From Chloroflexota bacterium (GTDB taxonomy: Bacteria; Chloroflexota; UBA11872; VXNJ01), in assembly GCA_965263025.1 (NCBI GenBank), contig OZ253578.1, positions 2,943,300 through 3,007,299 of the forward strand: a DNA stretch of 64,000 nucleotides, given 5' to 3'. This document shows, piece by piece, positions 9,733 through 52,518 of this stretch; within the stretch, counting starts at the first letter, position 1, and every line of letters begins with the position of its first letter. The position numbers and the translations under genes were made by a program. A model generated the notes under the pieces. It ran no database searches and was not told where the DNA came from. It saw only the letters and a list, made by a program, of their open reading frames with translations.

Positions 9733-10539
9733 CTACCAGTCCGCGGGAGATCCCGCCCACGCGCCGAGCGCCATCATGCCTCCGTCCACGCAGACGTATT
9801 CTCCGGTCATGAACGAAGCCCGGTCGCTGGCGAGGAACAGCACGACGTTGGCGATCTCGGCCGGCGTGCCTATGCGTCCCATGGGATGCGCCGCGCCCCA
9901 GCCTTTCTTTGCCTCCTCCAGATTTGCGCCGGTCCCGTCGGCGGCCTGTTTAACGAGCGGCGTGTCGATGGTTCCGGGGCAGACGGCGGTGACGCGAATG
10001 CCCTCGGCGGCGTAGTCGAGCGCGAGCTGTCGGGTCAACGACAACACTCCACCCTTGCTCGCCGCATACGCCGACACTCGCGACTGGGACTGGATGCCCT
10101 GAACGCTCGCGATGTTGACTATGCTGCCGCCGCCGCGTTTCCTGATTTGCGGAATGGCGAACCGCGCGGTCAGATAGTGCGCCTTCAGATTGACGTCGAT
10201 GATGCGGTCCCACGCGTCCTCTGGCAGGTCCTCGACTTTCAGGTAGGAGCTGGGCGGCTGAATACCGGCGTTGTTGACTACTATGTCAAGACCGCCGAAC
10301 TTGGCGGTCGCGGCCTGCACGAGCCGGCTTACGTCGTCGATTTTCGCGACGTCGCACTCAACGACCAAATGGCTGGCTTCGTCTGGCGCAATCTCGCCGG
10401 CGGTAGCCCGGGCCGCCGCGCCGTCGATGTCGGCCAGTACGGTGGAGGCGCCTTCGGCCAGGAACGCCTCCGCTATTCCCCGGCCTATACCCATCGCCGC
10501 ACCGGTCACTATGACGACCTTGCCTTGGAATTCCGCCAC
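9733..10539 (-). CDS. SDR-family oxidoreductase
   Basis: 268 aa with TGAAMGIG (TGxxxGxG), NNAG and the catalytic YAASK (YxxxK). Confidence 0.85.
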   Translation of the reverse strand: MAEFQGKVVIVTGAAMGIGRGIAEAFLAEGASTVLADIDGAAARATAGEIAPDEASHLVVECDVAKIDDVSRLVQAATAKFGGLDIVVNNAGIQPPSSYLKVEDLPEDAWDRIIDVNLKAHYLTARFAIPQIRKRGGGSIVNIASVQGIQSQSRVSAYAASKGGVLSLTRQLALDYAAEGIRVTAVCPGTIDTPLVKQAADGTGANLEEAKKGWGAAHPMGRIGTPAEIANVVLFLASDRASFMTGEYVCVDGGMMALGAWAGSPADW

Positions 10540-10592
10540 GATCTAATCCTCCTCGCGCTCTGTCAGACGTCTTGCGCCGGTTCCGCGCCGGC

Positions 10593-10934
10593 TCAGCTTT
10601 CCGTAACCGAGTAGCTCAACGTCTGGTACCGGATGAACCCGCCTTCGACGTAGAACGAGTCGATGCCCCGCGCGGCGCGGCCATCGGCGCCCTGGCCGCT
10701 CCATTCGAGCAAGATCATCGAGTCACCGGCGGTGACCGAATCCTGACTGAGGGCCATCTCGCCCACGTTTTCGCCGATTCCTTCGAAGACCGACTGTACT
10801 TCGGCATGACCGCGGGCGATCGCGCCGGGCGTTACGAACACCGCGTCGGGCGCATAGTCCGCCAGGATTCGGTCCATGTCGCCCGATAGAACCGCGTCCC
10901 AATGGTCGTCGAATACTTGCCGCGCGTCGCGCAT
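10593..10934 (-). CDS. SnoaL-like / NTF2-fold protein
   Basis: I moved the start to the ATG at 10934, which has a GGGAGGG RBS upstream. The 113-aa sequence (HWDAVLSGDMDRILADYAPDAVF...) is typical of SnoaL/NTF2-like small proteins. Confidence 0.55.
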   Translation of the reverse strand: MRDARQVFDDHWDAVLSGDMDRILADYAPDAVFVTPGAIARGHAEVQSVFEGIGENVGEMALSQDSVTAGDSMILLEWSGQGADGRAARGIDSFYVEGGFIRYQTLSYSVTES

Positions 10935-11246
10935 CGTCACATACCCTCCCGAACCGGCGCCTAATCCCGCTTTGTTCCCGACCGGAAATAGCGGGGACTC
11001 GTGCGTCAAGATGATAAATGCGCGACGGGACCTCCGCGAATCGCCGGCGAGCGCCCGGGCCCACGGGCGATCCATCGCGGGCGGCGCGCATCAGTTTCAA
11101 TTTGCCTGCTGGCGTCTCGTTGCGGCGCTCGACGCTGGTTCGCCTGGGCGGCAGTTTTTACTATTGGCCGTCCGGCGTCGATAATCCAGGGGTCGCTAGC
11201 GCGGCGCACCGCGTCGAAACCCGCCTGCAAACGAGGGAGGTTCCCA

Positions 11247-11630
11247 TTGGATGCACAACGAATCAACCCGCCCGGACTGCCTACTCCGCTGGCCGCTTAC
11301 AGCCAGGTCGTGAGGAAGGGCTCGATCGTCGCCACGGCCGGGGCGGTGGCGCTGGACGTCGAAGGAAAGGTTGTCGGCGAGGGGGACATCGAAGCTCAAA
11401 CCCGCGCGGTGCTCGAGAACATCAGGACGGCTTTGGAAGCCGCCGGGGCTTCCATGCGAGACGTGATCAAGACGACGGTATTCATCGCGGATATGAGCGA
11501 TTACAAAGGCATGAACGCGGTTTACAACGAGTTTTTCAGCGACGCGCCGCCCGCCCGGTCAACGTTAAGGGCCGAGCTGGTGCTGCCCTCGCTGCTCGTC
11601 GAAATCGAGGCTCTGGCGGTTACCGACTGA
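11247..11630 (+). CDS. RidA/YjgF-family reactive-intermediate deaminase
   Basis: A TTG at 11247 lies 6 nt after GGGAGG. The 127 aa include AAYSQVV...GDIEAQTRAVLENI...TVFIADM...PARSTL...VEIEA, the classic YjgF/UK114 pattern. Confidence 0.8.
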   Translation: MDAQRINPPGLPTPLAAYSQVVRKGSIVATAGAVALDVEGKVVGEGDIEAQTRAVLENIRTALEAAGASMRDVIKTTVFIADMSDYKGMNAVYNEFFSDAPPARSTLRAELVLPSLLVEIEALAVTD

Positions 11631-11843
11631 GACCGCTCCAGCGAGCGTTCCGGTGATGATGTCCATTCGGTAGAGTTCGGCGCTAGCCGGACGCGCCGCG
11701 GCTCGCCCGGCGCCGACGCCCGGTCGCGGGCGTTGAAATGCCGATGGGGAGACTTTGGGTTGTCGTCGTCGGCGGGGCCGAAGCGCTCGTCCGGTCCGGC
11801 TTTCGCGCGGGGGAGTTTCGCAGCGGGCGATGCTGCGCCGGTC

Positions 11844-13310
11844 TTACCCGTAGCGGGGTTCGTTGCGCCAGCCAGCGGCCTTGGTGGTGCTCGTTACAAA
11901 CCAGTTGTGCATAACTTCGCGGAGCTGCTGCTTGATTGCGGCGTGCGCGGGGTCATGCCACAGATCGTTCAGCTCATCCGGGTCGTTGCGAAGATCGAAG
12001 AGTTGACCGCCCGAAGGGTCGAAGAACTCAACCAGTTTCCAGTCCTTGCCGCGGATCATCAATTCAAACTCGACGCCTTCGTTGACCGTGTCGCGCGCGT
12101 GCTCGGAGTAGACGTATTCCCGAGGCGCGGCTTCGACGCCGCTTTCCAAAATCGGGAGGAGGGACACGGCTTCGAAGTTTGACGGGGGCTCGATGCCGGC
12201 CAGTTCGAGGATCGTAGGGCCGGCGTCGAATAGCTGTTGCAGACTTTCAATGGTCCTGCCGCCCTCGAATCGCCCAGGCGACCAAAAGATGAGCGGCACG
12301 CGCACCGAGGCGTCGTACATGTTCCATTTTTGGCTGAGACCGTGATCGCCCAGGCAGTCGCCATGATCCGAGGTGAAAATGATCACCGAGTTCTCCAACT
12401 GCCCGCGGTCTTCGAGCGCCGCGAGGATCTGCCCGATCTTCTCGTCGATCATCGTGACGTTAGCCAGGTAATAGGCGCGCTGACGATGCCGCTGGCTCAT
12501 TGGCGCGTCTGGACGGAACGCGACCGAGTCGGCGTCGCGTTGCACGTGCGACTGCCGCAGGGCCTTGACGGCGTCGGGCTGGGAGTCCATTTCCTGCTGA
12601 GAAACGGGAAGCACCGGCAGCTCGCGGCGCATGTACGGCTCGGCGTACCGCTCGACGGGATCGTAGGGCGGATGCGGACCGGGAAATCCGATCTGGAGGA
12701 ACAGCGGTTCGTCGTCCATCGGCGGGGCCTGCGCGAGCCAGCGCAGCGCCAGATCGCCGACGAAGAAGTCGGGGTGCAGTTCGTCCTCGAGATGCCAGTC
12801 GTACGCTCCGAGACTCGTTTCGAAGTCGGGCAGGGTGCGAAAGTGATCTTTCTCCAGTCGCTTGTATCCCCGCGCCCATAGCGCCTTGTCGAATTCGTCG
12901 TTGAATACGTGCCGCCCGCCCGCCCACTGCACCTCGGCGGCTCTGCGCTGCTTGTTCTCGACGACCTGGCGCTCGTGGAATCCGTGCCTTCCGCCGTAGG
13001 GGTCCGCGTGCATTTTGCCGATGTTTACGCAGCGGTATCCCGAATCACTCAGGGACTCGACCCAGGTGCGCGGCCAGGGGTCGTTGTTGCGCTGCGCTCC
13101 GTGGTTGTGCGGTGAATATCCGGTAAAGAGGCTTGCGCGCGACGGTCCGCACGACGGGGCGTTTATGAAGCAATGGCTGAAGCTGACGCCCTCGCGCACC
13201 AGCCGGTCGAGGACGGGCGTATCGACGTGCGGGAAGCCGAGCGCGTTGATGGTGTCGTAGCGCTGCTGGTCGGTGATTATCAGGATGATGTTGGGGCGTC
13301 GGTCGGGCAT
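11844..13310 (-). CDS. Cys-type sulfatase (arylsulfatase family)
   Basis: I moved the start to the ATG at 13310 (MPDRRPNIILIITDQQR). The formylglycine motif SCGPSRASLFTG (C-x-P-x-R) is present. 488 aa. No maturase gene is nearby. Confidence 0.85.
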   Translation of the reverse strand: MPDRRPNIILIITDQQRYDTINALGFPHVDTPVLDRLVREGVSFSHCFINAPSCGPSRASLFTGYSPHNHGAQRNNDPWPRTWVESLSDSGYRCVNIGKMHADPYGGRHGFHERQVVENKQRRAAEVQWAGGRHVFNDEFDKALWARGYKRLEKDHFRTLPDFETSLGAYDWHLEDELHPDFFVGDLALRWLAQAPPMDDEPLFLQIGFPGPHPPYDPVERYAEPYMRRELPVLPVSQQEMDSQPDAVKALRQSHVQRDADSVAFRPDAPMSQRHRQRAYYLANVTMIDEKIGQILAALEDRGQLENSVIIFTSDHGDCLGDHGLSQKWNMYDASVRVPLIFWSPGRFEGGRTIESLQQLFDAGPTILELAGIEPPSNFEAVSLLPILESGVEAAPREYVYSEHARDTVNEGVEFELMIRGKDWKLVEFFDPSGGQLFDLRNDPDELNDLWHDPAHAAIKQQLREVMHNWFVTSTTKAAGWRNEPRYG

Positions 13311-13873
13311 TCGCGGCAATATCCATAGTTTGATCGCCTCGGCCCACCCGGCATTTCCAGATCTCGCGAAGCGTGAGAATTCGGGAGCCGGCCAAGAATA
13401 GCGGCAGTTTCGGCGAGACGTTGGACCATGACGGGAAGGGGCGCCCTGACGTGGGGCCGGATAGCCGCGGGCCTGGCCTCCGCGCGCCGCGGCAAACATT
13501 CGACCTGAAGGCGGCGCAAGACGCCGCGGGCGAACAGAAATAGCCAGCCTGTTTTGACGCGCCGGGCGGGCTGAACTAGACTTCCCCGTCGCCGGAAAGC
13601 TATGAAGCCTCGTTGCCGCGCGGCCGGCGCCGGAACTATGTAGTTTCCATTACGCTGGAGCACTCAGGCCGCGCGCGATATCCAGCGCCACTTGCGTTTT
13701 GACGCAACCTCGCGGGCCAATGCAGGCCCCCCAGCCCTGGGCAGGGACATACCGAGCCTCGCCGGCCCGACCAAGCCAACCGCAGCGGAGCAGACCCTGG
13801 ACGCTGGCGCGCTATTCGTTATTACGGGATGTGTAGCGGCGCGCCGATATAGAGAAAGGATATTGCCAGGCAG

Positions 13874-14212
13874 ATGAAGAAGGTGGAGGCCATTATCAGG
13901 CACGAAATGCTGGAGCGGGTTCGGGACGCGCTCGACAAGGCGGGGTTCCACGGGCTGACGATCAGCGAAGTGAGAGGCGCGGGCACACAGCGCGGTTACA
14001 GCGAGAGCTACAGGGGAGTGAAGGCGTCGATCCTCTTTCGCCCAAAGATCAAGATGGAGGTTGTCGTCGATGACGCGAGCGTCGAGAGCGTCGTGTCCGT
14101 TATTTGCGAAAACGCCGTTACGGGCGAGGTCGGCGACGGAAAGATATTCGTCGTCCCGATAGAAGACGCCATACGAATCCGCACTCAGCAAAAAGGACAT
14201 GACGCGCTTTGA
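13874..14212 (+). CDS. glnK: P-II nitrogen regulatory protein
   Basis: 112 aa: MKKVEAIIR..., a T-loop with RGYSESYRG, and a C-terminal DGKIFV...IRIRT. Its stop overlaps the start of the ammonium transporter gene. Confidence 0.9.
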   Translation: MKKVEAIIRHEMLERVRDALDKAGFHGLTISEVRGAGTQRGYSESYRGVKASILFRPKIKMEVVVDDASVESVVSVICENAVTGEVGDGKIFVVPIEDAIRIRTQQKGHDAL

Positions 14213-15660
14213 AGACGACCGGATTCAACCTGGGTCCGCTGATGACTCTGTCACCGGTAGCGCGGCTGACGCCGTGGCGGTGGTTTGCCGCGCTCGGCGG
14301 CGCGCTGATTGCGGCGCTGCTGATTCCGGCGGCGGCGGGCGCCAGCGAACTGACTCTGACGGATGTCGAGCGCGCCGTGGACACTCTCTGGGTGGTGGTG
14401 GCGGGAGCGCTGGTCTTTCTGATGCATCTGGGCTTCACGATGCTCGAGGCCGGGTTCACGCGCATGAAGAACGCGGCAAATATCTGCGCGAAGAACATCA
14501 TGAATATCGCGGTGGGCCTGATCGCCTACTGGGCCGTCGGGTTTCCGTTCATGTTCGGCGACGGCAATTCGTTTCTGGGCCACAGCGGCTGGTTCCTGTC
14601 GGTAACCGACGCTGACGCGGCAAGTTCGTTTTCGTCGCTGGACTGGGCCGACGTGACCATATCGACCAAATGGTTTTTCCAGGTTGTTTTCGCGGCGACG
14701 GCCGCGACGATCGTCTCCGGCGCGGTGGCGGAGAGAACCAGATTCGTGGGCTACCTCGCCTACGTGGTTGTGCTTACCGCCTTCATTTACCCGGTGGTCG
14801 GCCATTGGGTCTGGGGCGGGGGGTGGCTTGCGGATCTTGGATTTCTCGATTTCGCCGGCTCGACGGTGGTCCACACGGTAGGCGGAGTCGCGGCGCTCGT
14901 GGGCGCAATAGTCGTAGGACCCCGAGTCGGAAAGTATGCGGGCGGCAAGATCAACGTAATTCCGGGACACAGCATGCCGCTGGCGATCGCTGGCGTGCTG
15001 GTGCTCTGGTTTGGATGGTTTGGATTCAATGCCGGAAGCACCCTGAAGGCCGCGGGCGTTGATTTTGCGGCGATTGTGCTCACTACGAACCTCGCGGCGG
15101 CGTCGGGCGTGGTGGGCGCGCTTGTGATTTCGCGGCTTATCTATGGAAAGCCCGACGTCGGAATGCTGGGCAACGGCGGACTTGCCGGACTGGTGGCGAT
15201 CACGGCCGGCTGCGCGTTCGTGGATTCGTGGGCGGCGGTAGTGATTGGTTTGATCGCGGGGATCATTGTCGTCCTGTCGGTGGTTGGGATCGACCGCCTG
15301 AGAGTCGACGATCCGGTTGGGGCGGTGTCTGTCCATGCCGTGTGCGGTATCTGGGGGACGCTTGCGGTTGGTCTGTTTGGCACGGCGGAACTGACCGAGG
15401 GCGCCGGCCGCGCCGGCCTCTTCTACGGCGGCGGCCTGGCTCAGCTGGGCGTGCAGGCTATCGGCTCGCTGAGCACGGTCGCATGGGTCGGGGTCACCTG
15501 CCTGATCGTGTTCTACGCGATAAAGCACACAGTTGGCCTGAGAGTCGACCGGTCGCACGAACTCGACGGACTCGACATCTCCGAGCACGGCATGTGGGGT
15601 TACCCTGAATCCGTGGCCGGGGCGGCGTACATCGGCACACCGGGCAATGGCGCGAGCTAG
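14209..15660 (+). CDS. amtB: ammonium transporter (Amt family)
   Basis: 483 aa, polytopic, with a signal-like N-terminus and Amt blocks (DFAGSTVVH, GFNAGS, VHAVCGIWG). The TTG start overlaps the glnK stop. The start could instead be the ATG at 14242. Confidence 0.88.
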   Translation: MKTTGFNLGPLMTLSPVARLTPWRWFAALGGALIAALLIPAAAGASELTLTDVERAVDTLWVVVAGALVFLMHLGFTMLEAGFTRMKNAANICAKNIMNIAVGLIAYWAVGFPFMFGDGNSFLGHSGWFLSVTDADAASSFSSLDWADVTISTKWFFQVVFAATAATIVSGAVAERTRFVGYLAYVVVLTAFIYPVVGHWVWGGGWLADLGFLDFAGSTVVHTVGGVAALVGAIVVGPRVGKYAGGKINVIPGHSMPLAIAGVLVLWFGWFGFNAGSTLKAAGVDFAAIVLTTNLAAASGVVGALVISRLIYGKPDVGMLGNGGLAGLVAITAGCAFVDSWAAVVIGLIAGIIVVLSVVGIDRLRVDDPVGAVSVHAVCGIWGTLAVGLFGTAELTEGAGRAGLFYGGGLAQLGVQAIGSLSTVAWVGVTCLIVFYAIKHTVGLRVDRSHELDGLDISEHGMWGYPESVAGAAYIGTPGNGAS

Positions 15661-15856
15661 GGGATATCCGATACCGGGACTGGAGACCGCGACCTCCGCG
15701 CCCGGGACTTGAAGGCGGGGCGGACGCCTCTGCAACAGTCGGCGCGCCATGCCTGGCTCTTGCAGGGGGTCCGTCTCCCCGACGTTCGGATGCGCCGGAG
15801 AAACCGATCTAGAATTGCACTTGTCGCGGTGCTGATTCAGGCATGGGAAGTACGAG

Positions 15857-30521: not shown

Positions 30522-31024
30522 TCCAGGCTCACCAACACGCCGATCTTCAATCAGGGACTCCGGTCCGGTCACCGGTGGCGATACCGCTCGAACGGGCCTC
30601 GCGCGACCGTTGCGCTCAAGCGTTCGATCCTGTGTTGCTCCATGCCAATCAGCGACCTCTCCTCGTGGATTTCCCGAACCTGGTAAGCGCGTCCTTTGCT
30701 CGTATCGCCTGCTCGAACCTGTCGGCGTCGGGAAGCGCCAGAGTGTCATTGAAGGCTATGACGAATCCATCCGAAGCCGCAATCACGAAGCGCGCGCCTG
30801 GGTTCAAGTCAACCACCGGGCCGCTTCAACGGTCCAACCTGGTAAACGTGGGACGCTCGTTGGGCATTACTGGCGGGAACGGTTCGGGCCTTATTGCCGT
30901 TACGTACGAATCGGGCGGGGCAGGCCCGAATCTACTCACCGCGCGGCCCCGGCGCCTAATGCGCTGAGTTAGACTTTGCTCCGCCACCAGCGGGATTGAA
31001 ACGCACTCAATAGGGGACCCGAAT

Positions 31025-31969
31025 ATGAAGATCGTCGCATTGACGACACATATAGCAGGCTATCTGGATTCGGTGCAGGATGCCGCGCCCGAGGCCGAAA
31101 TCGTCGAGGCGCCTGACGATGACGCGATGCTTCGTGAGGTGGTTGACGCGGAAGTCCTGTTCGCTGGCATATTCAGCGAAGATCTCCTCGAAGCCGCCGC
31201 GCAGCTCAAGTGGGTGCAGATCTCTTCCGCGGGCGTCGAGTGGATGCCGAAGCAGGCGATTGCGAACAAAGGCTGGCAAGTAACGAACGCCGCCGGCATC
31301 CACGCCATCCCGGTAGCCGAAACGGCGATCGCGCTTTTGTCGGGCGTTGCGAGACGCGTCGACTGGACTACTCGAAACAGGGTCAAGGGAGAGTGGGTCA
31401 GGCCGCCGGGCATTTTTGAATTGTTCGAAAAGACGGCCGGCGTAATCGCAATGGGCGGCATTGGACGGGCGTTCGCCGAACGCGCCCGCGGCCTCGGGAT
31501 GCGGGTCATCGGAGTAGACGTAAACCCGGCCGCGAAGCCTGAATACGTGGATGAGTTGCGAGGGATCGAGGAGCTGGAGTGGCTGCTCGGAAGTTCGGAC
31601 GTCGTCTGCATGACCGCTCCGGATACGCCCAAGAGCCACCACATGATGAACGCCGAGCGATTCGCCCAAATGCGGCAAGGGTCGATTTTCATCAATGTCT
31701 CGCGCGGCGGTCTGGTGGACACCGACGCGCTTGTCGACGCGATCGATTCGGGAAGGTTTTTCGGAGTGGGTCTCGACGTGATCGAAGGCGAGCCGCTCAG
31801 GTCCGGCCACCCGATCTGGAGTCGCGACGACGTGCTGATCACGCCGCACATCGGGGGGACGAGTCCGCGACGACCCGAGCGCATGATCGAACTGTTTACC
31901 GAAAACCTGCGGCGCTACCAGGCGGGCGAACCGCTGCGGAATCTGGTCGATCTAAAAGCCGGGTTTTAA
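31025..31969 (+). CDS. D-isomer-specific 2-hydroxyacid dehydrogenase family protein
   Basis: 314 aa with the NAD fold GVIAMGGIGRAF, plus the downstream R...E...H catalytic context (NVSRGGLVD, ITPHIGG). Confidence 0.8.
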   Translation: MKIVALTTHIAGYLDSVQDAAPEAEIVEAPDDDAMLREVVDAEVLFAGIFSEDLLEAAAQLKWVQISSAGVEWMPKQAIANKGWQVTNAAGIHAIPVAETAIALLSGVARRVDWTTRNRVKGEWVRPPGIFELFEKTAGVIAMGGIGRAFAERARGLGMRVIGVDVNPAAKPEYVDELRGIEELEWLLGSSDVVCMTAPDTPKSHHMMNAERFAQMRQGSIFINVSRGGLVDTDALVDAIDSGRFFGVGLDVIEGEPLRSGHPIWSRDDVLITPHIGGTSPRRPERMIELFTENLRRYQAGEPLRNLVDLKAGF

Positions 31970-31973
31970 GTTC

Positions 31974-32126
31974 CCGGTTGTGCGGCTCGCGATGGCGGCG
32001 AGTCGCGGCGCGGGTTAAACGAAGCGCAGGAGCTGGCTCAGGCTGTCGATCGTGTGGGCGGGTTTGTGGCGTCCCAGTTCGGCCTCGGGGCGGCGGCGGA
32101 GCCAGATCGGCATGACACCCGCCGCG
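31974..32126. repeat. left copy of a 153-bp direct repeat (duplicate of the HAD gene 3' end)
   Basis: It matches 34861-35013 with about 6 mismatches in 153. It contains the last 112 nt of HAD-type coding sequence plus 41 nt of downstream hairpin region. It starts 4 nt after the dehydrogenase stop. Confidence 0.9.
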
Positions 32127-32167
32127 TCGAGCATATGGCGCAACCGAAATTCGTCATCTCTGCGCAT
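32015..32167 (-). pseudogene. chimeric remnant: N-terminus of a HEPN (DUF86-type) toxin fused in frame to the duplicated HAD C-terminus
   Basis: 50 codons: [17 protein letters not shown], a DUF86-like opening, followed by VMPIWLRRRPEAELGRHKPAHTIDSLSQLLRFV, which copies the HAD C-terminus. Its ATG overlaps the 3' end of the MNT gene, as in MNT-HEPN pairs. Confidence 0.55.
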
Positions 32168-32459
32168 ATTGAACTTCAGCCGCATCCAGTACAGCTTGCC
32201 GGAAGTAGGGGCTCAGCTCCTCGGGTGTTCGCAGGTCCACTTTGCGTCCACCGAACACCCCAGACAACTCCAACTCCATGCTGACAACGCCCAACAGTCC
32301 GGGAATCCTGTCCGGCTCAAACTCAACGAGCAGGTCGATGTCGCTCTCAGGCCCGAAGTCTTCGCGCAGCGCCGAGCCGAAGATGGCCAGCCGCGTTATT
32401 CCGTGCTCTTGGCAGAATTCGGCGAGGGCGTCTCTGGGGATCGCTATACGTGGATTCAT
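32154..32459 (-). CDS. MNT-type nucleotidyltransferase (antitoxin component of HEPN/MNT modules)
   Basis: I moved the start to the ATG at 32459 (AGGGAG upstream). The 101 aa contain FGSALRED...[10 protein letters not shown] (G-S...D-x-D), the minimal nucleotidyltransferase motif. Confidence 0.8.
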
Positions 32460-32617
32460 TGCGACTCCCTCGCTTCCCTGTAGTCCGGTTTCATGCCGAA
32501 CAGCGCCTGCCTGCCGCGCTGGTCCAGAAAGGTGCACATCATCATGGCCGCCTTCTGCCGCTCGCTAGGTAGCTTGGCTAGGCTAGCGGTGAATGTGTCT
32601 GTTAAACGGAATTGCAT
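32456..32617 (-). CDS. small ORF (53 aa) translationally coupled to the MNT gene
   Basis: Not in the ORF track because it is under 60 aa. The sequence is [24 protein letters not shown]... Its TGA overlaps the MNT ATG (ATGA). The N-terminus resembles RelE/ParE-type toxin openings, but the ORF is too short for one. Confidence 0.3.
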
Positions 32618-32645
32618 ATGGCACTCTTGGCGAGTTCCAGTGTCT

Positions 32646-33545
32646 CTAATCCACAGTCTGCCAATCTGGCCGGGAAGCTTCGACTTTCAACAGCTTTTCT
32701 TGCACGCTGTCTAGTCTCTGGAGTAGTGGTTCCGCATCAGGTTGATCAAAGTACTTGCCTAGGTACTCCTTAGCCGCTTCCGCCACGAAGATGCCGGTCG
32801 GACCAAGAAGTTCACCATCTGTTCTAAGGCGATCATAATTGGGTTCAAACCCAGAATCCTTGGGCACTAAATGGTTTTTGACTAGATCTACCCAGTCCCC
32901 GTGAATCGCGTGGGAAGCTATTCTCTGCAACGCTGTGTATGCAAGCGAGTCTTCCCCGAGAGCAGTTAGTTTGTCGCGAAAGCTTCCGCCCCAATTTCCT
33001 GCTTTCGGGTTAACTTCCTCTACTGCTACTCCCGACTGCTGGCACGTGTCCTCAATCGATCTGAGCATGTTCTGTTCGATTGTGAGTTTTTCGCTACCTC
33101 TGGCTCGGATTTCTTCCTGAATCATGTCGTACAGCTCGCGCTCGGCACCGAGGCTGCTTATAACGAATCCGTCATAGACTCTGTCGTCGTCTTTGAATAG
33201 CAAGTACCGAAGATTGACCGTGGATTCAATAATGCACCTGTTCAGCGCCATTACTGTGTCCCCGTGCTCAATATCTGCTGACAACTTAACGACTGAAACC
33301 ATGAGCTTGGATATGCGAACGAGCAATCCCACGCAGATCGCCTGATTCCGGTCGAACTTGATAGCGTCGCCTTTATCGCCGAAATAGGCAGCACTTGTGA
33401 CACAAACTAGACTGCCGGCTTCTTTGTATAGCTCGTATACCAACGCTCCGAATTGTTCATTTGTCCGACACGTCTCGATCACTTCCTCGGCCACCTCCAC
33501 CGGAGGTCCTACGAGACGTCGCAGTTCATCGTTGAGTTCTATCAA
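32646..33545 (-). CDS. hypothetical 299-aa protein, predicted all-helical; possible Abi/HEPN-like defence protein
   Basis: This long ORF lies in the lowest-GC stretch of the window. I recognise no catalytic family. It has an R-x6-H string (QRIASHAIHG) and strings vaguely like DUF5677-type proteins (my recollection, unverified). It sits next to an hsdS remnant. Confidence 0.6.
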   Translation of the reverse strand: MIELNDELRRLVGPPVEVAEEVIETCRTNEQFGALVYELYKEAGSLVCVTSAAYFGDKGDAIKFDRNQAICVGLLVRISKLMVSVVKLSADIEHGDTVMALNRCIIESTVNLRYLLFKDDDRVYDGFVISSLGAERELYDMIQEEIRARGSEKLTIEQNMLRSIEDTCQQSGVAVEEVNPKAGNWGGSFRDKLTALGEDSLAYTALQRIASHAIHGDWVDLVKNHLVPKDSGFEPNYDRLRTDGELLGPTGIFVAEAAKEYLGKYFDQPDAEPLLQRLDSVQEKLLKVEASRPDWQTVD

Positions 33546-33642
33546 AACACTCTAGCCTTGGGGCAACCCACCCACTTATGCTCGCTCCCAAGCATGTAGT
33601 CGCTCAGCACTACCACGGTTGTGAGCTCTGCATCATCCCATT

Positions 33643-33828
33643 CTAGGGATAGCGGTGTTTCAAGACGGAGAGCACGGGTGCTTCGGAACAGTGCCGACAC
33701 GCCGACAGCTCGAGATCAACCACTCGATTCTCACCCGTCATAAGCTTGTGGAGCAGGGACTTGAAGAGGTCGTCAAGGATGGCGCGTTTGCGGCGGTGCA
33801 GGTCTATCTTGCAGGTCATCTCCGACAT
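33643..33828 (-). pseudogene. fragment of a type I restriction-modification specificity subunit (HsdS C-terminal conserved helix)
   Basis: [29 protein letters not shown] is the conserved C-terminal coiled-coil end of HsdS proteins. No target-recognition domain precedes it. Confidence 0.6.
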
Positions 33829-33977
33829 TTTTCGGACGGTCTTCGATATCCATGGTGCTTGAGGGGCGGCGGTTAGAGCAAGGTCAGTAGATCGCGGAGG
33901 GCGTGGAATGGGGTGAGCGGGTTGGTGGCGTGCCAGCTCAGCCTCTTCGCCGTGCTTGCGCTTGGCAACTCTTCGGA

Positions 33978-33997
33978 TTAGCTATATCGTTAGCTAA
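33978..33997 (+). promoter_or_regulatory. candidate antitoxin operator (two palindromic TAGCTA boxes)
   Basis: TTAGCTA (33978-33984) and TTAGCTAA (33990-33997) are 12 bp apart. They lie 23 nt upstream of the antitoxin ATG and overlap a TATATC -10-like element. Confidence 0.35.
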
Positions 33998-34019
33998 GTT
34001 CGTGTTGAAGGAGTCGGCG

Positions 34020-34256
34020 ATGGCGACGTTCAACGTGCATGAAGCCAAGACCCATTTATCGAAGCTGCTGGCGAAGGTGGAGGCTGGCGAGGAGGTGATC
34101 ATCGCCCGCAACGGCAAGCCGGTGGCGCGGCTGGTGGGCTTGAGGCGCGGTGGGAAGAGGCAATTCGGCTCCATGAAGGGCCTGATAAAGCTGGACGATA
34201 GCTTCTTCGATCCACTGCCGGAGGAAGAGCTGGCCTTGTGGGAGGGGCGGGGGTAG
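34020..34256 (+). CDS. Phd/YefM-type antitoxin
   Basis: ATG at 34020 with AAGGAG upstream. The sequence MATFNVHEAKTHLSKLLAKVEAGEEVIIARNGKPVARLV is the classic Phd/prevent-host-death antitoxin N-terminus. 78 aa. Confidence 0.85.
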   Translation: MATFNVHEAKTHLSKLLAKVEAGEEVIIARNGKPVARLVGLRRGGKRQFGSMKGLIKLDDSFFDPLPEEELALWEGRG

Positions 34257-34259
34257 CGA

Positions 34260-34646
34260 TTGAGACTGCTGCTCGACACCCATGCGTTCATCTGGTGGTT
34301 TGAGGGAAACAGACGGTTGTCGCTGCCGGCTCGGCAGGCGATCGACGATGAAACGAACGACGTATTGATCAGCGCTGTCTCGGCTTGGGAGATCGCTATC
34401 AAATACTGGCTTGGCAAACTGCCGGCAGTGGAGGCGCTGGTCCTCGACATATCTGGGGCCATAGCCAACCAGGGCTTCCGGGAACTGCCAATCACCGTCG
34501 ATGACGCCGCGCGGGCGGGAGCGCTGCCGGGCCGTCATCGTGATCCGTTCGACAGGATGCTCATCGCGCAGGCGCTGTCCGGCAACCTGGCGCTTGTTTC
34601 TATCGACCCCCTCTTTGATCGCTATGGGGTCCGCCGCCTGTGGTGA
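34260..34646 (+). CDS. vapC: PIN-domain toxin (VapC family)
   Basis: 128 aa, 3 nt after the antitoxin stop. The PIN acidic residues are in LLDTHA, WEIAIK and DPFDRM. Confidence 0.85.
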   Translation: MRLLLDTHAFIWWFEGNRRLSLPARQAIDDETNDVLISAVSAWEIAIKYWLGKLPAVEALVLDISGAIANQGFRELPITVDDAARAGALPGRHRDPFDRMLIAQALSGNLALVSIDPLFDRYGVRRLW

Positions 34647-34726
34647 TCGGGGGCAGTTAGTTCGTTAGCCGTTTCGCTTTAGTGATCGTGATGTCCCCTG
34701 GCGGGCGAGTTCGCTTTGATGACGCC

Positions 34727-34830
34727 GCCCCTCCCCTCTGGATTCCGGCTTTCGCCGGAATGACGAAAAGGGGAAACGCATGCTCACCCTCGCTCCTTCC
34801 TTTCCGAGGGCGAGGGAGCCGGTGAATGGG
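34727..34830. repeat. palindromic dispersed repeat (VIPAKAGIQ-type)
   Basis: ATTCCGGC-TTTC-GCCGGAAT (34742-34761) is followed by GACGAA and a second imperfect palindrome, CCCTCGC...GCGAGGG. It is related to 35763-35782. The overlapping ORF translates to ...FVIPAKAGIQ..., a known junk-ORF signature. Confidence 0.8.
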
Positions 34831-34860
34831 TCGCCGGTGTTGATCCACTCCTAACCCTGA

Positions 34861-35013
34861 CCGGTTGTGCGGCTCGCGATGGCGGCGAGTCGCGGCGCGG
34901 GTTAAACGAAGCGCAGGAGCTGGCTCAGGGTGTTGATTGTGTGGGCGGGTTTGTGGCGTCCCAGTTCGGCCTCGGGACGGCGGCGGAGCCAAATCGGCTT
35001 GACACCCGCCGCG
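34861..35013. repeat. right copy of the 153-bp direct repeat (part of the intact HAD gene and its downstream hairpin)
   Basis: See 31974-32126. This copy is contiguous with the full-length HAD reading frame. Confidence 0.9.
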
Positions 35014-35606
35014 ACGGCGGAGTCAACGTCCTTGCCAGGCGTGTCGCCGACGTAAACGGCGTCGGCGGGATCGGCTTGCAGATCATCGATTACGGAAAGA
35101 ATGCCCCGCGGGTCGGGCTTTATAGCGCCCAGCTCCTCCGAGAAGGCCATCGCCTTGATGTAATGATCGAGTCCCAGGCGCTCGGTCAGCGAGGCCCAAT
35201 GGATAGCCGGCCCGGCGACGTCGGAGACGAGTCCCATCGCGGTGCGGCGGCGGCTCAGGAGGTCGAGAACGGGCACCGTTTCACGGTATAGCCGCCAATC
35301 GCCACTGGTCAGCGCCAAGCCGAAATTTTCGATCGCGGGTGATCTGGCATTCGCTGAATACGGTCCGTTATCTCTCGAAAGTTTTGCCCAAAGGCCGTCG
35401 ATTTCCATCGGTCGGCTGTCGATCAGGGCGGCTTCCACTTCGGTCAGGACGGCCAGCTCGTAATCTGTCGCGCGCCGCTGTCCGGCAACTGTGCGGAGAT
35501 CGCCGCACAAGCGCGTCAGCGCGCCGCGGACGGTTTCCGACCAGGCTGAGTAGCTGCTCCCCGCGTATTCGGCAAGCGTCCAGCCGAAATCGAATATGAC
35601 GGTCAC
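34902..35606 (-). CDS. HAD-superfamily hydrolase
   Basis: I set the start at the GTG at 35606 (GGAG 6 nt upstream), giving VTVIFDFGWTL. The late motif is VYVGDTPGKDV. Motif I reads D-F-G rather than D-x-D. The longer ORF-track N-terminus runs through a repeat. Confidence 0.7.
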   Translation of the reverse strand: MTVIFDFGWTLAEYAGSSYSAWSETVRGALTRLCGDLRTVAGQRRATDYELAVLTEVEAALIDSRPMEIDGLWAKLSRDNGPYSANARSPAIENFGLALTSGDWRLYRETVPVLDLLSRRRTAMGLVSDVAGPAIHWASLTERLGLDHYIKAMAFSEELGAIKPDPRGILSVIDDLQADPADAVYVGDTPGKDVDSAVAAGVKPIWLRRRPEAELGRHKPAHTINTLSQLLRFV

Positions 35607-35730
35607 GGACCGCTCCACGTATCGACCTTCAAAGCCGGACGGGGTTTGGCGTCTCGAACTTGTCGTTGATGTATGAGTTGGGTAATTCGTTGACAGGTTG
35701 GAAGAGGACAATTGCGGCACTCTTCGCCAT

Positions 35731-35790
35731 TCCCGGCTCCCTCTCCGCCCCACGGCCCCTGGATGCCGGCTTTTGCCGGCATGACGAATT
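35731..35790. repeat. palindromic dispersed repeat
   Basis: ATGCCGGC-TTTT-GCCGGCAT (35763-35782) is followed by GACGAA, the same architecture as 34742-34767. Confidence 0.75.
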
Positions 35791-35885
35791 TGCAGTCTTC
35801 CTGGTCTCACCACGCTGCCATTCGGGTGACTGAGCCGCCGCTTCCGTCAACGCATTAGTTGTCATTTGCGACTCGACACAGGCCG

Positions 35886-36209
35886 CTAGCCGCGTTTTGT
35901 GAATAGGGTCCGCCATGCGCGGGCGGCTTCACGCCGTGAAGCCGTTTGGGGTGGCCTCGACCGCACGTAGCGGTCGGTCAGCCAGCGCGCGATCATCCAG
36001 ACGACCACGCACCCGATCCCCAGGCTGCCCAGAACCAGGAATATCTGAGGGTCGAAGTCGATGAAGGGCCAAATAACCAGGCGGAGGATGAAGAACACGC
36101 CGTAGATTGCGAGAGTTACCCTAATGGACCACAGCAATCGCCGCCGGAAGCCGGACTGCAAGATGAACATTGCGGCGACGACGAAACTGGCGACTAGCAA
36201 GATTCTCAA
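35886..36209 (-). CDS. small integral membrane protein, unknown function
   Basis: 107 aa with three hydrophobic helices and a basic C-terminal tail. It is co-directional with and 33 nt downstream of the K+ channel gene. Confidence 0.5.
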   Translation of the reverse strand: MRILLVASFVVAAMFILQSGFRRRLLWSIRVTLAIYGVFFILRLVIWPFIDFDPQIFLVLGSLGIGCVVVWMIARWLTDRYVRSRPPQTASRREAARAWRTLFTKRG

Positions 36210-36241
36210 GGTTCAGTCCAGGCCCGCCGGCGCTGGCCGGT

Positions 36242-37339
36242 TCAATTTGCCACCGTCGACGCGGCGCCGGCGAATTTGTCGAGATCGTCTGGCGAGCCAA
36301 CGGCGACAAGCTGGTCGCCCTCAAGGAGTTTCACGTCTTTGCTGGGCATGAAGCGGAGGTCGTCGTCGCCCCGTCTGAGGGCAATCAAGTCGACCGCCAG
36401 GCGCTCGTCTTCACAGTAATGGATAGCTTTGTCCTTGATCGGCGACTGGGAGGTTAACTCCACTTGGCGGAGCACGATGTCGCCGTGCAACTCGTCGGAG
36501 AGCATGGCGATCACTTGCGCAACCAGCGGTCGGGTCAACAGAAAGGCCATCTGCTGAGCGCCGGCATTGTAGGGAGTGACGGAATAGTCGGCGCCGGCCT
36601 TGCGCAGCTTATCCAGCGCGGAGTCGTTGGCGGCTCGCGCCACGATCTTGACTTCGGGCGCGAGCGATCGGGCGGAGAGCGTGACGAAGGCATTTTCGGC
36701 GTCGGAGTCTAGCGCCGCGACGAGGCCTTTGGCCCGCTCCAGCCCGGCGGCGATCAGGCTGGCGTCTTCGGTGGCGTCACCCCGGACGACCGGCAGGCCC
36801 ATCGCCTCGGCGGACTGGCAGCTTTCGCCGTCGATCTCGACAACACATGCCGCGTGCCCTTCGCGGAGCAGTTCACTGACGATGCCCCGGCCCATGCGGC
36901 CGAATCCGCAAACTATGTAGTGTCCGCTGAGTTGTGAAACCAATCTGCGTAACCGGCGTCTCCGAATGCCCGTGGCGAAATGCCCTTCCGCGACATATTC
37001 CGCAATCGCGGCGATAGCGTAGAGGGCGCCGCCTACACCGAATACTACTAGCCCCAGGGTCAGGATGCGGCCCGCCAGGCTTAGTGGATAGACTTCGCCG
37101 AAGCCAACCGTCGTAAGGGTGATCGCGACCATGTAGAGGGAGTCGAGCAGCGACCAGCCTTCGATGATCTGATAGGCGACGGTTGCGCCGATGGCGTTCA
37201 AGGTGATGAATGCGACGGAGCCGAGGATTCTGCGCCGAAGCCGAGCTTCTTCCTTGGCCGCCTCCTGGGTCCGCTGGAGTTGCGCCGCGCGCAAGATTCG
37301 GGGCGCCCACCCGGGTGGTCCGTCCGGACTACGGGCCAT
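36242..37339 (-). CDS. potassium channel with RCK (TrkA-N/TrkA-C) gating domains
   Basis: 365 aa. It has two TM helices flanking the pore signature TLTTVGFGE, a Rossmann-type TrkA-N domain (IVCGFGRMG) and a TrkA-C domain. Its start overlaps the pheA stop by 11 nt. Confidence 0.82.
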   Translation of the reverse strand: MARSPDGPPGWAPRILRAAQLQRTQEAAKEEARLRRRILGSVAFITLNAIGATVAYQIIEGWSLLDSLYMVAITLTTVGFGEVYPLSLAGRILTLGLVVFGVGGALYAIAAIAEYVAEGHFATGIRRRRLRRLVSQLSGHYIVCGFGRMGRGIVSELLREGHAACVVEIDGESCQSAEAMGLPVVRGDATEDASLIAAGLERAKGLVAALDSDAENAFVTLSARSLAPEVKIVARAANDSALDKLRKAGADYSVTPYNAGAQQMAFLLTRPLVAQVIAMLSDELHGDIVLRQVELTSQSPIKDKAIHYCEDERLAVDLIALRRGDDDLRFMPSKDVKLLEGDQLVAVGSPDDLDKFAGAASTVAN

Positions 37340-52420: not shown

Positions 52421-52518
52421 TGGCGGAGGTGCATGGGAGTCGAACCCACCGACGACGTATCGCTACGCCGCCCAACGGATTTGAAGTCCGCGGAGCCCAC
52501 CGGAACTCTTGCACCTCC
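52421..52518 (-). tRNA. selC: tRNA-Sec (anticodon UCA)
   Basis: 98 nt on the minus strand:
- 8-bp acceptor, GGAGGTGC/GCACCTCC.
- 6-bp D stem, GAGTTC/GGGCTC, with 4-nt loop CGGT.
- Anticodon loop CTTCAAA.
- Variable arm of about 22 nt.
- T arm GTGGG-TTCGACT-CCCAT.
- Discriminator G and an encoded CCA. Confidence 0.9.

Follow-up and report, generated by a model that had tools for sequence, protein, structure and literature searches.

In an uncultured Chloroflexota bacterium, known only as metagenome-assembled genomes, a 2.7-kb insertion (the islet) separates two convergent genes encoding a HAD-family hydrolase (HAD) and a D-2-hydroxyacid dehydrogenase. The islet is probably a decayed allele of an integrase-free recombination hotspot between these genes, at which mis-registered recombination leaves orphan HAD 3′ ends behind. 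It is the wreck of an island of restriction-modification (R-M) and toxin-antitoxin (TA) genes, apparently built by ordinary, sloppy recombination and with no dedicated integrase. The islet lies in a 64-kb stretch of DNA, the whole of which is called the window here. An earlier note on the sequence of the window had interpreted it as the product of one site-specific integration into the 3′ end of HAD.

The HAD–dehydrogenase site is empty in six relatives and variably occupied in eight loci

Related loci (n = 15, Chloroflexota) were collected by HAD protein searches; the compared contigs are numbered L001–L020, and WIN stands for the window. HAD converges directly on the dehydrogenase gene at six loci (L002, L003, L004, L008, L015 and L020), whose colinear sites lack the 2.7 kb, which bears out the insertion proposed in the earlier note. 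A scan of JGI metagenomes added one locus, in the empty state. The site is occupied at eight distinct loci, the window included, each with different cargo. L014 contains phd-vapC alone, 8 nt past the HAD stop and without HAD duplication, and L010 contains phd-vapC and one orphan HAD 3′ end that adjoins the dehydrogenase gene. A complete type I R-M operon occupies the site in L013, again without HAD duplication; this ~9.4-kb allele comprises hsdM, hsdS, half an hsdS, three unknown open reading frames (ORFs), MNT, HepT, hsdR and a YgjP-like gene.

The other occupants (WIN, L001, L009, L011 and L012) are mosaics, with extra cargo that includes an 829-aa ORF, an IS3, a 325-aa ORF, a DUF3800 gene and a gene for a 574-aa alpha/beta hydrolase. 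L011 has the islet of the window with an intact hepT and without the distal HAD copy. L012 is of the same species as L011, HAD and its upstream sequence being 99.8–100% identical, and yet the cargo is different and the dehydrogenase gene only 96.6% identical; recombination here therefore extends into the flanking core gene. The hepT of L012 is truncated at another codon than that of the window and is fused to a HAD copy from about −60 (counted back from the HAD stop). As at a hotspot, the flank genes are constant and the strain-variable cargo is rich in defence and TA genes; its eight states comprise R-M genes, phd-vapC, MNT-HepT, DUF5677, DUF3800 and unknown ORFs.

These comparisons leave next to no credence for an ancient local duplication, in which a second HAD paralogue would have decayed with unrelated genes in between. 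Such a duplication would account for the repeated HAD 3′ ends and for nothing else. It is refuted by the six empty sites; in addition, the cargo is polymorphic and laterally exchanged, and no HAD copy reaches beyond the last 112 nt of the gene.

Orphan HAD 3′ ends border and interrupt the islet

The islet is bordered by a direct repeat of 156 nt, the copies of which are 95.5% identical (Table 1). The 7 mismatches are unevenly spread, 0/69 in the first 69 nt and 7/87 in the remainder. The core of the repeat occurs in two copies only in the window and not at all in shuffled sequence. Each copy joins a 41-nt intergenic hairpin (−26 kcal/mol folded on the + strand, z = −2.1) to the HAD stop codon and the final 112 nt of the gene. 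The right copy forms the end of the complete HAD, and the left one starts 5 nt past the dehydrogenase stop, colinear with the HAD 3′ end in the empty sites of relatives. Both copies, their content and their relation to the two genes had been recognised in the earlier note, and the repeat has now been extended to its present length. Absent from that description is a third, degenerate HAD 3′ copy within the islet. This middle copy is common to six loci, the window counted, and therefore probably results from a single old event. Proximal, middle and distal copies are present in both the window and L001, the orphan ends lying downstream of the functional one.

A three-way comparison defined the left border. 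The hepT of L001 reads CATATGCTCGACGCGGCG followed by CGTGAA, the window reads CATATGCTCGACGCGGCG followed by GGTGTCATGCCG, and HAD of the window reads TCCGCCGTCGCGGCG followed by GGTGTCAAGCCG; codon 16 of hepT meets HAD 112 nt before its stop, across the 7-nt CGCGGCG. At the middle copy, the phd-side end GCCAAGCAAAA meets CGCCGCCCCGAG at −82, with the microhomology CGCCGCC. The motif CCGCCGCC of this second junction recurs directly after the HAD stop, and the end of the L014 cassette abuts it. Joints at such short microhomologies are characteristic of homology-facilitated illegitimate recombination (HFIR).

The inner boundaries of the HAD copies lie at −112 in the window, −82 in the middle copy and about −60 in L012, two of the three being inside hepT. 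Three different boundaries and two repeat-free occupants (L013 and L014) are unlike the product of a site-specific recombinase. These features, together with the microhomology joint in hepT and the composite nature of the islet, speak against the attL/attR footprint of one integration that the earlier note had seen in the repeats.

Parts of the cargo differ in ancestry from the flanks

Identity to L011 changes abruptly along the islet. A block of 1404 nt, 99.0% identical, takes in the hsdS tail, DUF5677, a helicase stub and 16 codons at the start of MNT, whereas the core flanks are 80–91% and phd-vapC 92–95% identical. Downstream of the block, the closest sequence is that of L001 (88.8%), both for the remainder of MNT and for the hepT stub. 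The islet is therefore a patchwork with a recent import, its cargo differing in ancestry from the flanks as in HFIR. The breakpoints of the block fall in sequence common to different island alleles.

The block contains the lowest G+C of the entire 64 kb, 0.502 in a 900-nt segment starting at 32601 as compared with 0.624 ± 0.024. The earlier note had placed a low-G+C stretch at 32560–33900; the dip is real when computed, but it is narrower and restricted to DUF5677, in which the G+C at third codon positions (GC3) is 0.54, as against 0.72–0.79 in neighbouring genes. The composition of phd-vapC is native. Judged by its identity to L011, the low-G+C block is a very recent recombinational import.

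Population data came from Logan unitigs (31-mers), whose span is shorter than the 156-nt repeat, and from one Hi-C run. Between 76 and 98% of the 31-mers sampled from 31500–35500 are contained in 20 public runs, and in 4/4 runs examined the unitig depth of the islet equals that of the flanks, the 31-mer unitigs being too short to link an empty allele or a circle across the repeat. The equal depth would fit fixation of the islet. In runs X12 and X18, the left copy has the right-copy base at 32043, and a minor unitig of X18 joins 35013 to 32116, taking right-copy-type sequence into the hepT stub at 5x as compared with 27x. The likeliest meaning of this minor joint is a left copy that has undergone conversion. 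Both observations fit gene conversion between the copies, which would also account for the stretch of 69 identical bases. Neither one Campbell-type event nor one HFIR event was accepted as the source of the entire repeat, since 0/69 versus 7/87 mismatches would need a later gene conversion.

The occupied loci lack a recombinase

The annotations of the eight distinct occupied loci include neither a tyrosine nor a serine recombinase, and the sole transposase among them is the IS3 of L001. Neither integrase nor transposase was found in the islet, among the annotated genes at ~21–42 kb or among the long ORFs at 1–18 kb of the window, nor at ~44–64 kb, which was seen only through the syntenic contigs of related strains. 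The absence of a recombinase from the islet, remarked upon in the earlier note, thus holds for the occupied relatives as well. Exact and degenerate scans of viral contigs for an attP-like HAD 3′ core gave 0 matches, and Rfam gave none at E ≤ 1 on 31000–36500. The only tRNA in the 64-kb window is a tRNA-Sec at 52421–52518 (−), and there is therefore no tRNA target. The satellite-type element that had also been considered gained no positive support.

The main rival explanation, unlikely if by no means negligible, is that the islet descends from one site-specific integrative element, or from two in tandem, and has decayed to a state similar to the cis-mobilisable elements (CIMEs). An island with an integrase would have entered HAD at its 3′ end, for which it brought a substitute, and a related element would have accreted beside it. 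The integrases and transfer genes would then have been lost, and the att sites blurred by later deletions (hepT, hsdM/R). Both CIMEs and accretion have been described for integrative and conjugative or mobilisable elements (PMC5704250), and the tandem arrangement with an internal repeat is like that of a CIME. The border direct repeats of the target gene 3′ end, the empty site in relatives and the reuse of the site in two clades are all consistent with such an origin. The three copies of L001 also fit the order B-O-P2′, P2-O-P1′, P1-O-B′, with P1 resembling P2 and P1′ resembling P2′, and several copies have the −82 boundary. That boundary, however, can be one inherited event, and the left boundary of the window, at microhomology inside the truncated hepT, lies 30 nt deeper into HAD, with the L012 boundary differing again. 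Unlike CIMEs, the site has no att sites of constant boundary, one of its borders lies inside a truncated cargo gene, and no cognate integrase-bearing partner was found. L013 and L014 occupy it without HAD duplication, a recombinase is present in 0/8 distinct occupied loci, and two viral-contig scans revealed no attP-like sequence.

Alternatively, the HAD 3′ end and its hairpin could be the site of an integron-like or Xer-like recombinase that is encoded elsewhere and inserts TA and defence cassettes in trans, which we regard as very improbable. In favour of it, phd-vapC is a very small unit (~0.9 kb) that two clades have at precisely this site, and it is more similar than the flanks, being 87% identical to that of L014, compared with ~78% for HAD. 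The repeat contains a hairpin, and REP-like hairpins lie beside the HAD stop in WIN, L010, L011 and L013. Yet the orientation of the cassettes is mixed, the junctions are variable, there are neither intI nor attC-like conserved ends, and the L014 cassette sits 8 nt past the HAD stop without a repeat. The pattern is also indistinguishable from homologous exchange at a shared locus. If true, this explanation would mean that a trans-acting recombinase moves integrase-less mini-cassettes between Chloroflexota genomes, the −82 boundary and the related L001 arms being its footprint. An integron cassette array was rejected separately: the window and the syntenic contigs (~44–64 kb) contain no intI, the orientation is mixed, and the repeats are HAD-derived.

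The cargo is a set of remnants and a few intact genes

From HAD to the dehydrogenase gene, the islet contains a REP-like hairpin, vapC, phd, the middle HAD 3′ copy, an hsdS tail, DUF5677, a 53-codon ORF, MNT and a hepT stub (Table 1). The MNT, phd and vapC genes, the hsdS fragment and a 299-aa gene named in the earlier note were all identified with Pfam and PADLOC, the last being DUF5677, and its REP-like palindrome was located. Comparison with the intact hepT of L001 established the identity of the truncated HEPN gene. The 53-codon ORF described there as coupled to MNT exists, but not as a gene of its own; it is a stub left from the 5′ end of a UvrD-like helicase gene. With hepT, the helicase gene and hsdS all reduced to stubs, the suggestion that the islet is a fossil has held up.

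Table 1. Features of the islet and its flanking genes, in window coordinates
Feature	Position	Strand	Basis and remarks
D-2-hydroxyacid dehydrogenase, conserved left flank gene	31025–31969	+	Pfam 2-Hacid_dh_C 2.6e-51; adjoins HAD in all empty-site relatives
Distal (left) orphan HAD 3′ copy, full empty-site configuration	31974–32129		Colinear with dehydrogenase-to-HAD 3′ end of L002, L003, L008
Microhomology CGCGGCG at hepT/HAD junction	32120–32126	-	Three-way comparison of L001 hepT, window chimera and window HAD
hepT (HEPN toxin) stub	32127–32167	-	With junction bases 32120–32126, first 16 native codons
MNT (MntA-like nucleotidyltransferase antitoxin), intact, toxin gone	32154–32459	-	Pfam NTP_transf_2 6.7e-12; PADLOC PDC-S09 5.7e-25
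Block, recent lateral import	32413–33816		14/1404 nt mismatched against L011 (99.0% identity); both breakpoints fall within cargo genes, hsdS′ and MNT
UvrD-like helicase gene, 5′ stub	32456–32617	-	Only first ~25 codons homologous
DUF5677 gene, full length, low G+C	32646–33545	-	Pfam DUF5677 1.1e-16; G+C 0.504, GC3 0.543
hsdS C-terminal fragment, type I R-M specificity subunit	33643–33828	-	PADLOC Specificity_I 1e-16, profile positions 378–419 of 428
Middle degenerate orphan HAD 3′ copy, −82 to stop	33865–33945		~72% identity; common to L001, L009, L010, L011, L012
phd antitoxin, intact	34020–34256	+	Pfam PhdYeFM 5.9e-13; TIGR01552 8e-10
vapC (PIN toxin), intact	34260–34646	+	Pfam PIN 9.8e-18; same-site orthologues in seven other loci
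REP-like hairpin element	34727–34773	-	Second, diverged copy at 35759–35785
Proximal (right) copy, functional HAD 3′ end + hairpin	34861–35016		Repeat comparison
HAD-family hydrolase, conserved right flank gene	34902–35606	-	Pfam HAD_2 / Hydrolase; 234 aa in near-identical contig L005

The phd-vapC pair has the layout of a type II TA system, with the phd stop (34254–34256) 3 nt before the vapC start (34260). Type I R-M systems combine hsdR, hsdM and hsdS, and the window has only a 61-codon hsdS tail. This fragment is homologous to L013 14729–14851, next to the intact hsdM-hsdS...hsdR operon. Of a type VII MntA/HepT pair, the window has a whole MNT and a hepT cut after 16 codons. Intact pairs are present in L001 (HepT: Pfam HepT-like 1.1e-24), L011 and L013. 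MNT matches the NCBIfam MntA model at 6e-09, which is under that model's cut-off. The hsdS tail, MNT and hepT start have the same order and orientation as in the intact L013 operon, and this part of the islet is therefore what remains of an R-M island that had modules embedded in it. In our estimate the wrecked type I R-M operon is likely to have once contained both an MNT-HepT pair and a DUF5677-UvrD module. The phd-vapC pair and the orphan MNT antitoxin are probably still functional, and DUF5677 possibly so.

A chimeric ORF of 56 codons spans the hepT/HAD junction in frame (32015–32185, −) and is made up of 6 codons from upstream, the 16 of hepT and the final 34 of HAD. Like a normal hepT, the chimeric ORF overlaps the end of MNT, and it could be translated as a fusion peptide.

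DUF5677 has 215 homologues of ~298 aa. Its AlphaFold2 model is confident (pLDDT 88) and all-alpha. PADLOC, NCBIfam and Pfam returned only the DUF itself, its profile had 0 matches among PDB sequences, and comparison of the model with PDB folds gave a best E of 0.15 at a TM of about 0.19, with no functional lead. Over 24 residues, the helicase stub shows 71% identity to the N-terminal end of the 689-aa UvrD helicase of L017 and L018, and the helicase gene follows DUF5677 at the same 29-nt spacing in the window and both contigs.

On these two unrelated contigs, DUF5677 and the full-length UvrD-like helicase gene stand together in defence-island-like surroundings (L017 9001–11995 and L018 3283–6277). 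In L017, DUF5677 adjoins a ResIII/methyltransferase pair. A DUF5677 homologue also lies in a large defence island on L016 (1–18900), together with GmrSD, AAA_21, SMODS, DUF4238 and NACHT genes; this is the same contig as L003, which has an empty HAD site. DUF5677 and the UvrD-like helicase may be an uncharacterised two-gene defence module that recurs in defence islands.

Two large ORFs of L001, at 9998–12487 (829 aa) and 13609–14586 (325 aa), lie in the stretch from the hsdS tail to MNT, the place of DUF5677 or unknown ORFs in other alleles. Neither has a match in Pfam, NCBIfam or PADLOC. This stretch of the former R-M operon has the look of a variable 'slot'.

The REP-like hairpin, of the form GTCATTCC-stem-GAAA-stem-GGAATCCAG, occurs on both sides of HAD (34727–34773 and 35759–35785), and also at ~10640–10670 in L013 and ~10860–10890 in L011. 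In four metagenome runs, the bin 34721–34921 containing it has a unitig depth of about 25,000x, as compared with ~90x in the sequence around it, and the REP-like element is therefore present in these communities in an enormous number of copies. In other lineages the hairpin is preserved although its stems differ (CCGGCGAAAGCCGG, CTCGCGAAAGCGGG and CCTCGCTTCGCTCGG), which suggests that it is under structural constraint.

Elsewhere in the window, two long ORFs overlap on opposite strands (14251–15750, −, and 14209–15660, +); the minus-strand one (499 aa) has no Pfam match.

Discussion

We favour the following history for the site. Homologous recombination, whether in shared modules or in the conserved flanks, would bring cargo in and pass it from lineage to lineage; exchange of this type is shown by the 99% block, which has its breakpoints inside hsdS′ and MNT. 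Occasionally, one end of the incoming or mis-paired strand would join at a few bases of microhomology instead, by HFIR or unequal exchange. The incoming HAD 3′ end would then become that of the gene itself, and the resident one would be displaced downstream as an orphan. In the window, joining of hepT codon 16 to HAD −112 across CGCGGCG would have given rise to the 156-nt repeat and inactivated the toxin gene, and gene conversion between the copies would later have homogenised their outer 69 nt. The decayed allele in the window is composed of an intact phd-vapC cassette beside HAD, then an old orphan HAD 3′ end, a type I R-M wreck and a second orphan HAD 3′ end.

Several points weigh against this history. 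The order and direction of the events are deduced from eight present-day states, the contrast between 0/69 and 7/87 mismatches needs gene conversion as an extra step, and natural competence or another route of DNA uptake, as well as RecA-dependent anchoring, has to be presumed for the organism. The middle copy, the distal copy of L001 and the second copy of L010 have one inner boundary (−82) and similar non-HAD arms, and in L001 the sequence past the proximal copy resembles that past the middle copy. Related elements that share an attP and integrate in tandem would leave exactly this combination of boundary and arms. We attribute it, though not provably, to common descent or tandem duplication; the L001 pattern could equally derive from an L010-like ancestor or a tandem duplication. 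Genome and metagenome collections were each scanned once, with a close relative as the query, and an integrase-bearing occupant could thus be missed. The viral scans covered two HAD-derived DNA patterns.

The site is probably a defence and TA hotspot of an already known kind rather than a new kind of mobile element, and its mechanism more mundane than attL/attR integration. The core defence hotspots (cDHS) of Pseudomonas aeruginosa have conserved core flanks and a median size of 26 kb, and homologous recombination in these flanks is their proposed transfer route (PMC10250203). Similarly, the present site has a fixed pair of core flanks, strain-variable R-M, TA and defence-like cargo of partly atypical G+C, and no hallmark of a mobile-element class. 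Flank-mediated transfer is directly visible here as a 99% block against ~85% flanks. In contrast to the cDHS, the site measures 1–7 kb in most occupied loci and ~9.4 kb in L013, is largely decayed, belongs to uncultured Chloroflexota and leaves orphan 3′ ends of a flank gene.

Displacement of 3′ ends has been proposed for orphan tips of Rhs and contact-dependent inhibition (CDI) genes and the effector-immunity arrays of type VI secretion systems (T6SS) (PMC5361080), and HFIR is described in PMC3240628; its action at the present site is inferred from the junctions. As in the Rhs and T6SS arrays, a conserved upstream anchor gene receives DNA that brings a new 3′ end and cargo, the old 3′ end is shifted downstream, repeated events produce a string of orphans, and the joints show microhomology. 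Unlike in Rhs/CDI, the anchor is a housekeeping-type HAD hydrolase and not a polymorphic toxin, with no selection for tip swapping, and the orphans are by-products. A type I R-M operon with an embedded MNT-HepT pair (type VII TA) is intact at the same site in L013 (hsdM, hsdS, MNT, HepT and hsdR). Compared with an operon of that type, the window has lost hsdM, hsdR, most of hsdS and the HepT toxin, and what is left is a remnant and not a system.

Direct repeats of a gene 3′ end around an island are, by themselves, no proof of integrase-mediated integration. The eight allelic states of this site, which begin with the empty one, pass by way of phd-vapC alone and the complete type I R-M operon and end with the mosaics, amount to a natural time course of decay in which the toxin is lost before the antitoxin. 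In an uncultured phylum, the site offers a compact and well-resolved case in which islands of defence and TA genes can be seen to be built, exchanged and eroded with no dedicated mobility gene.

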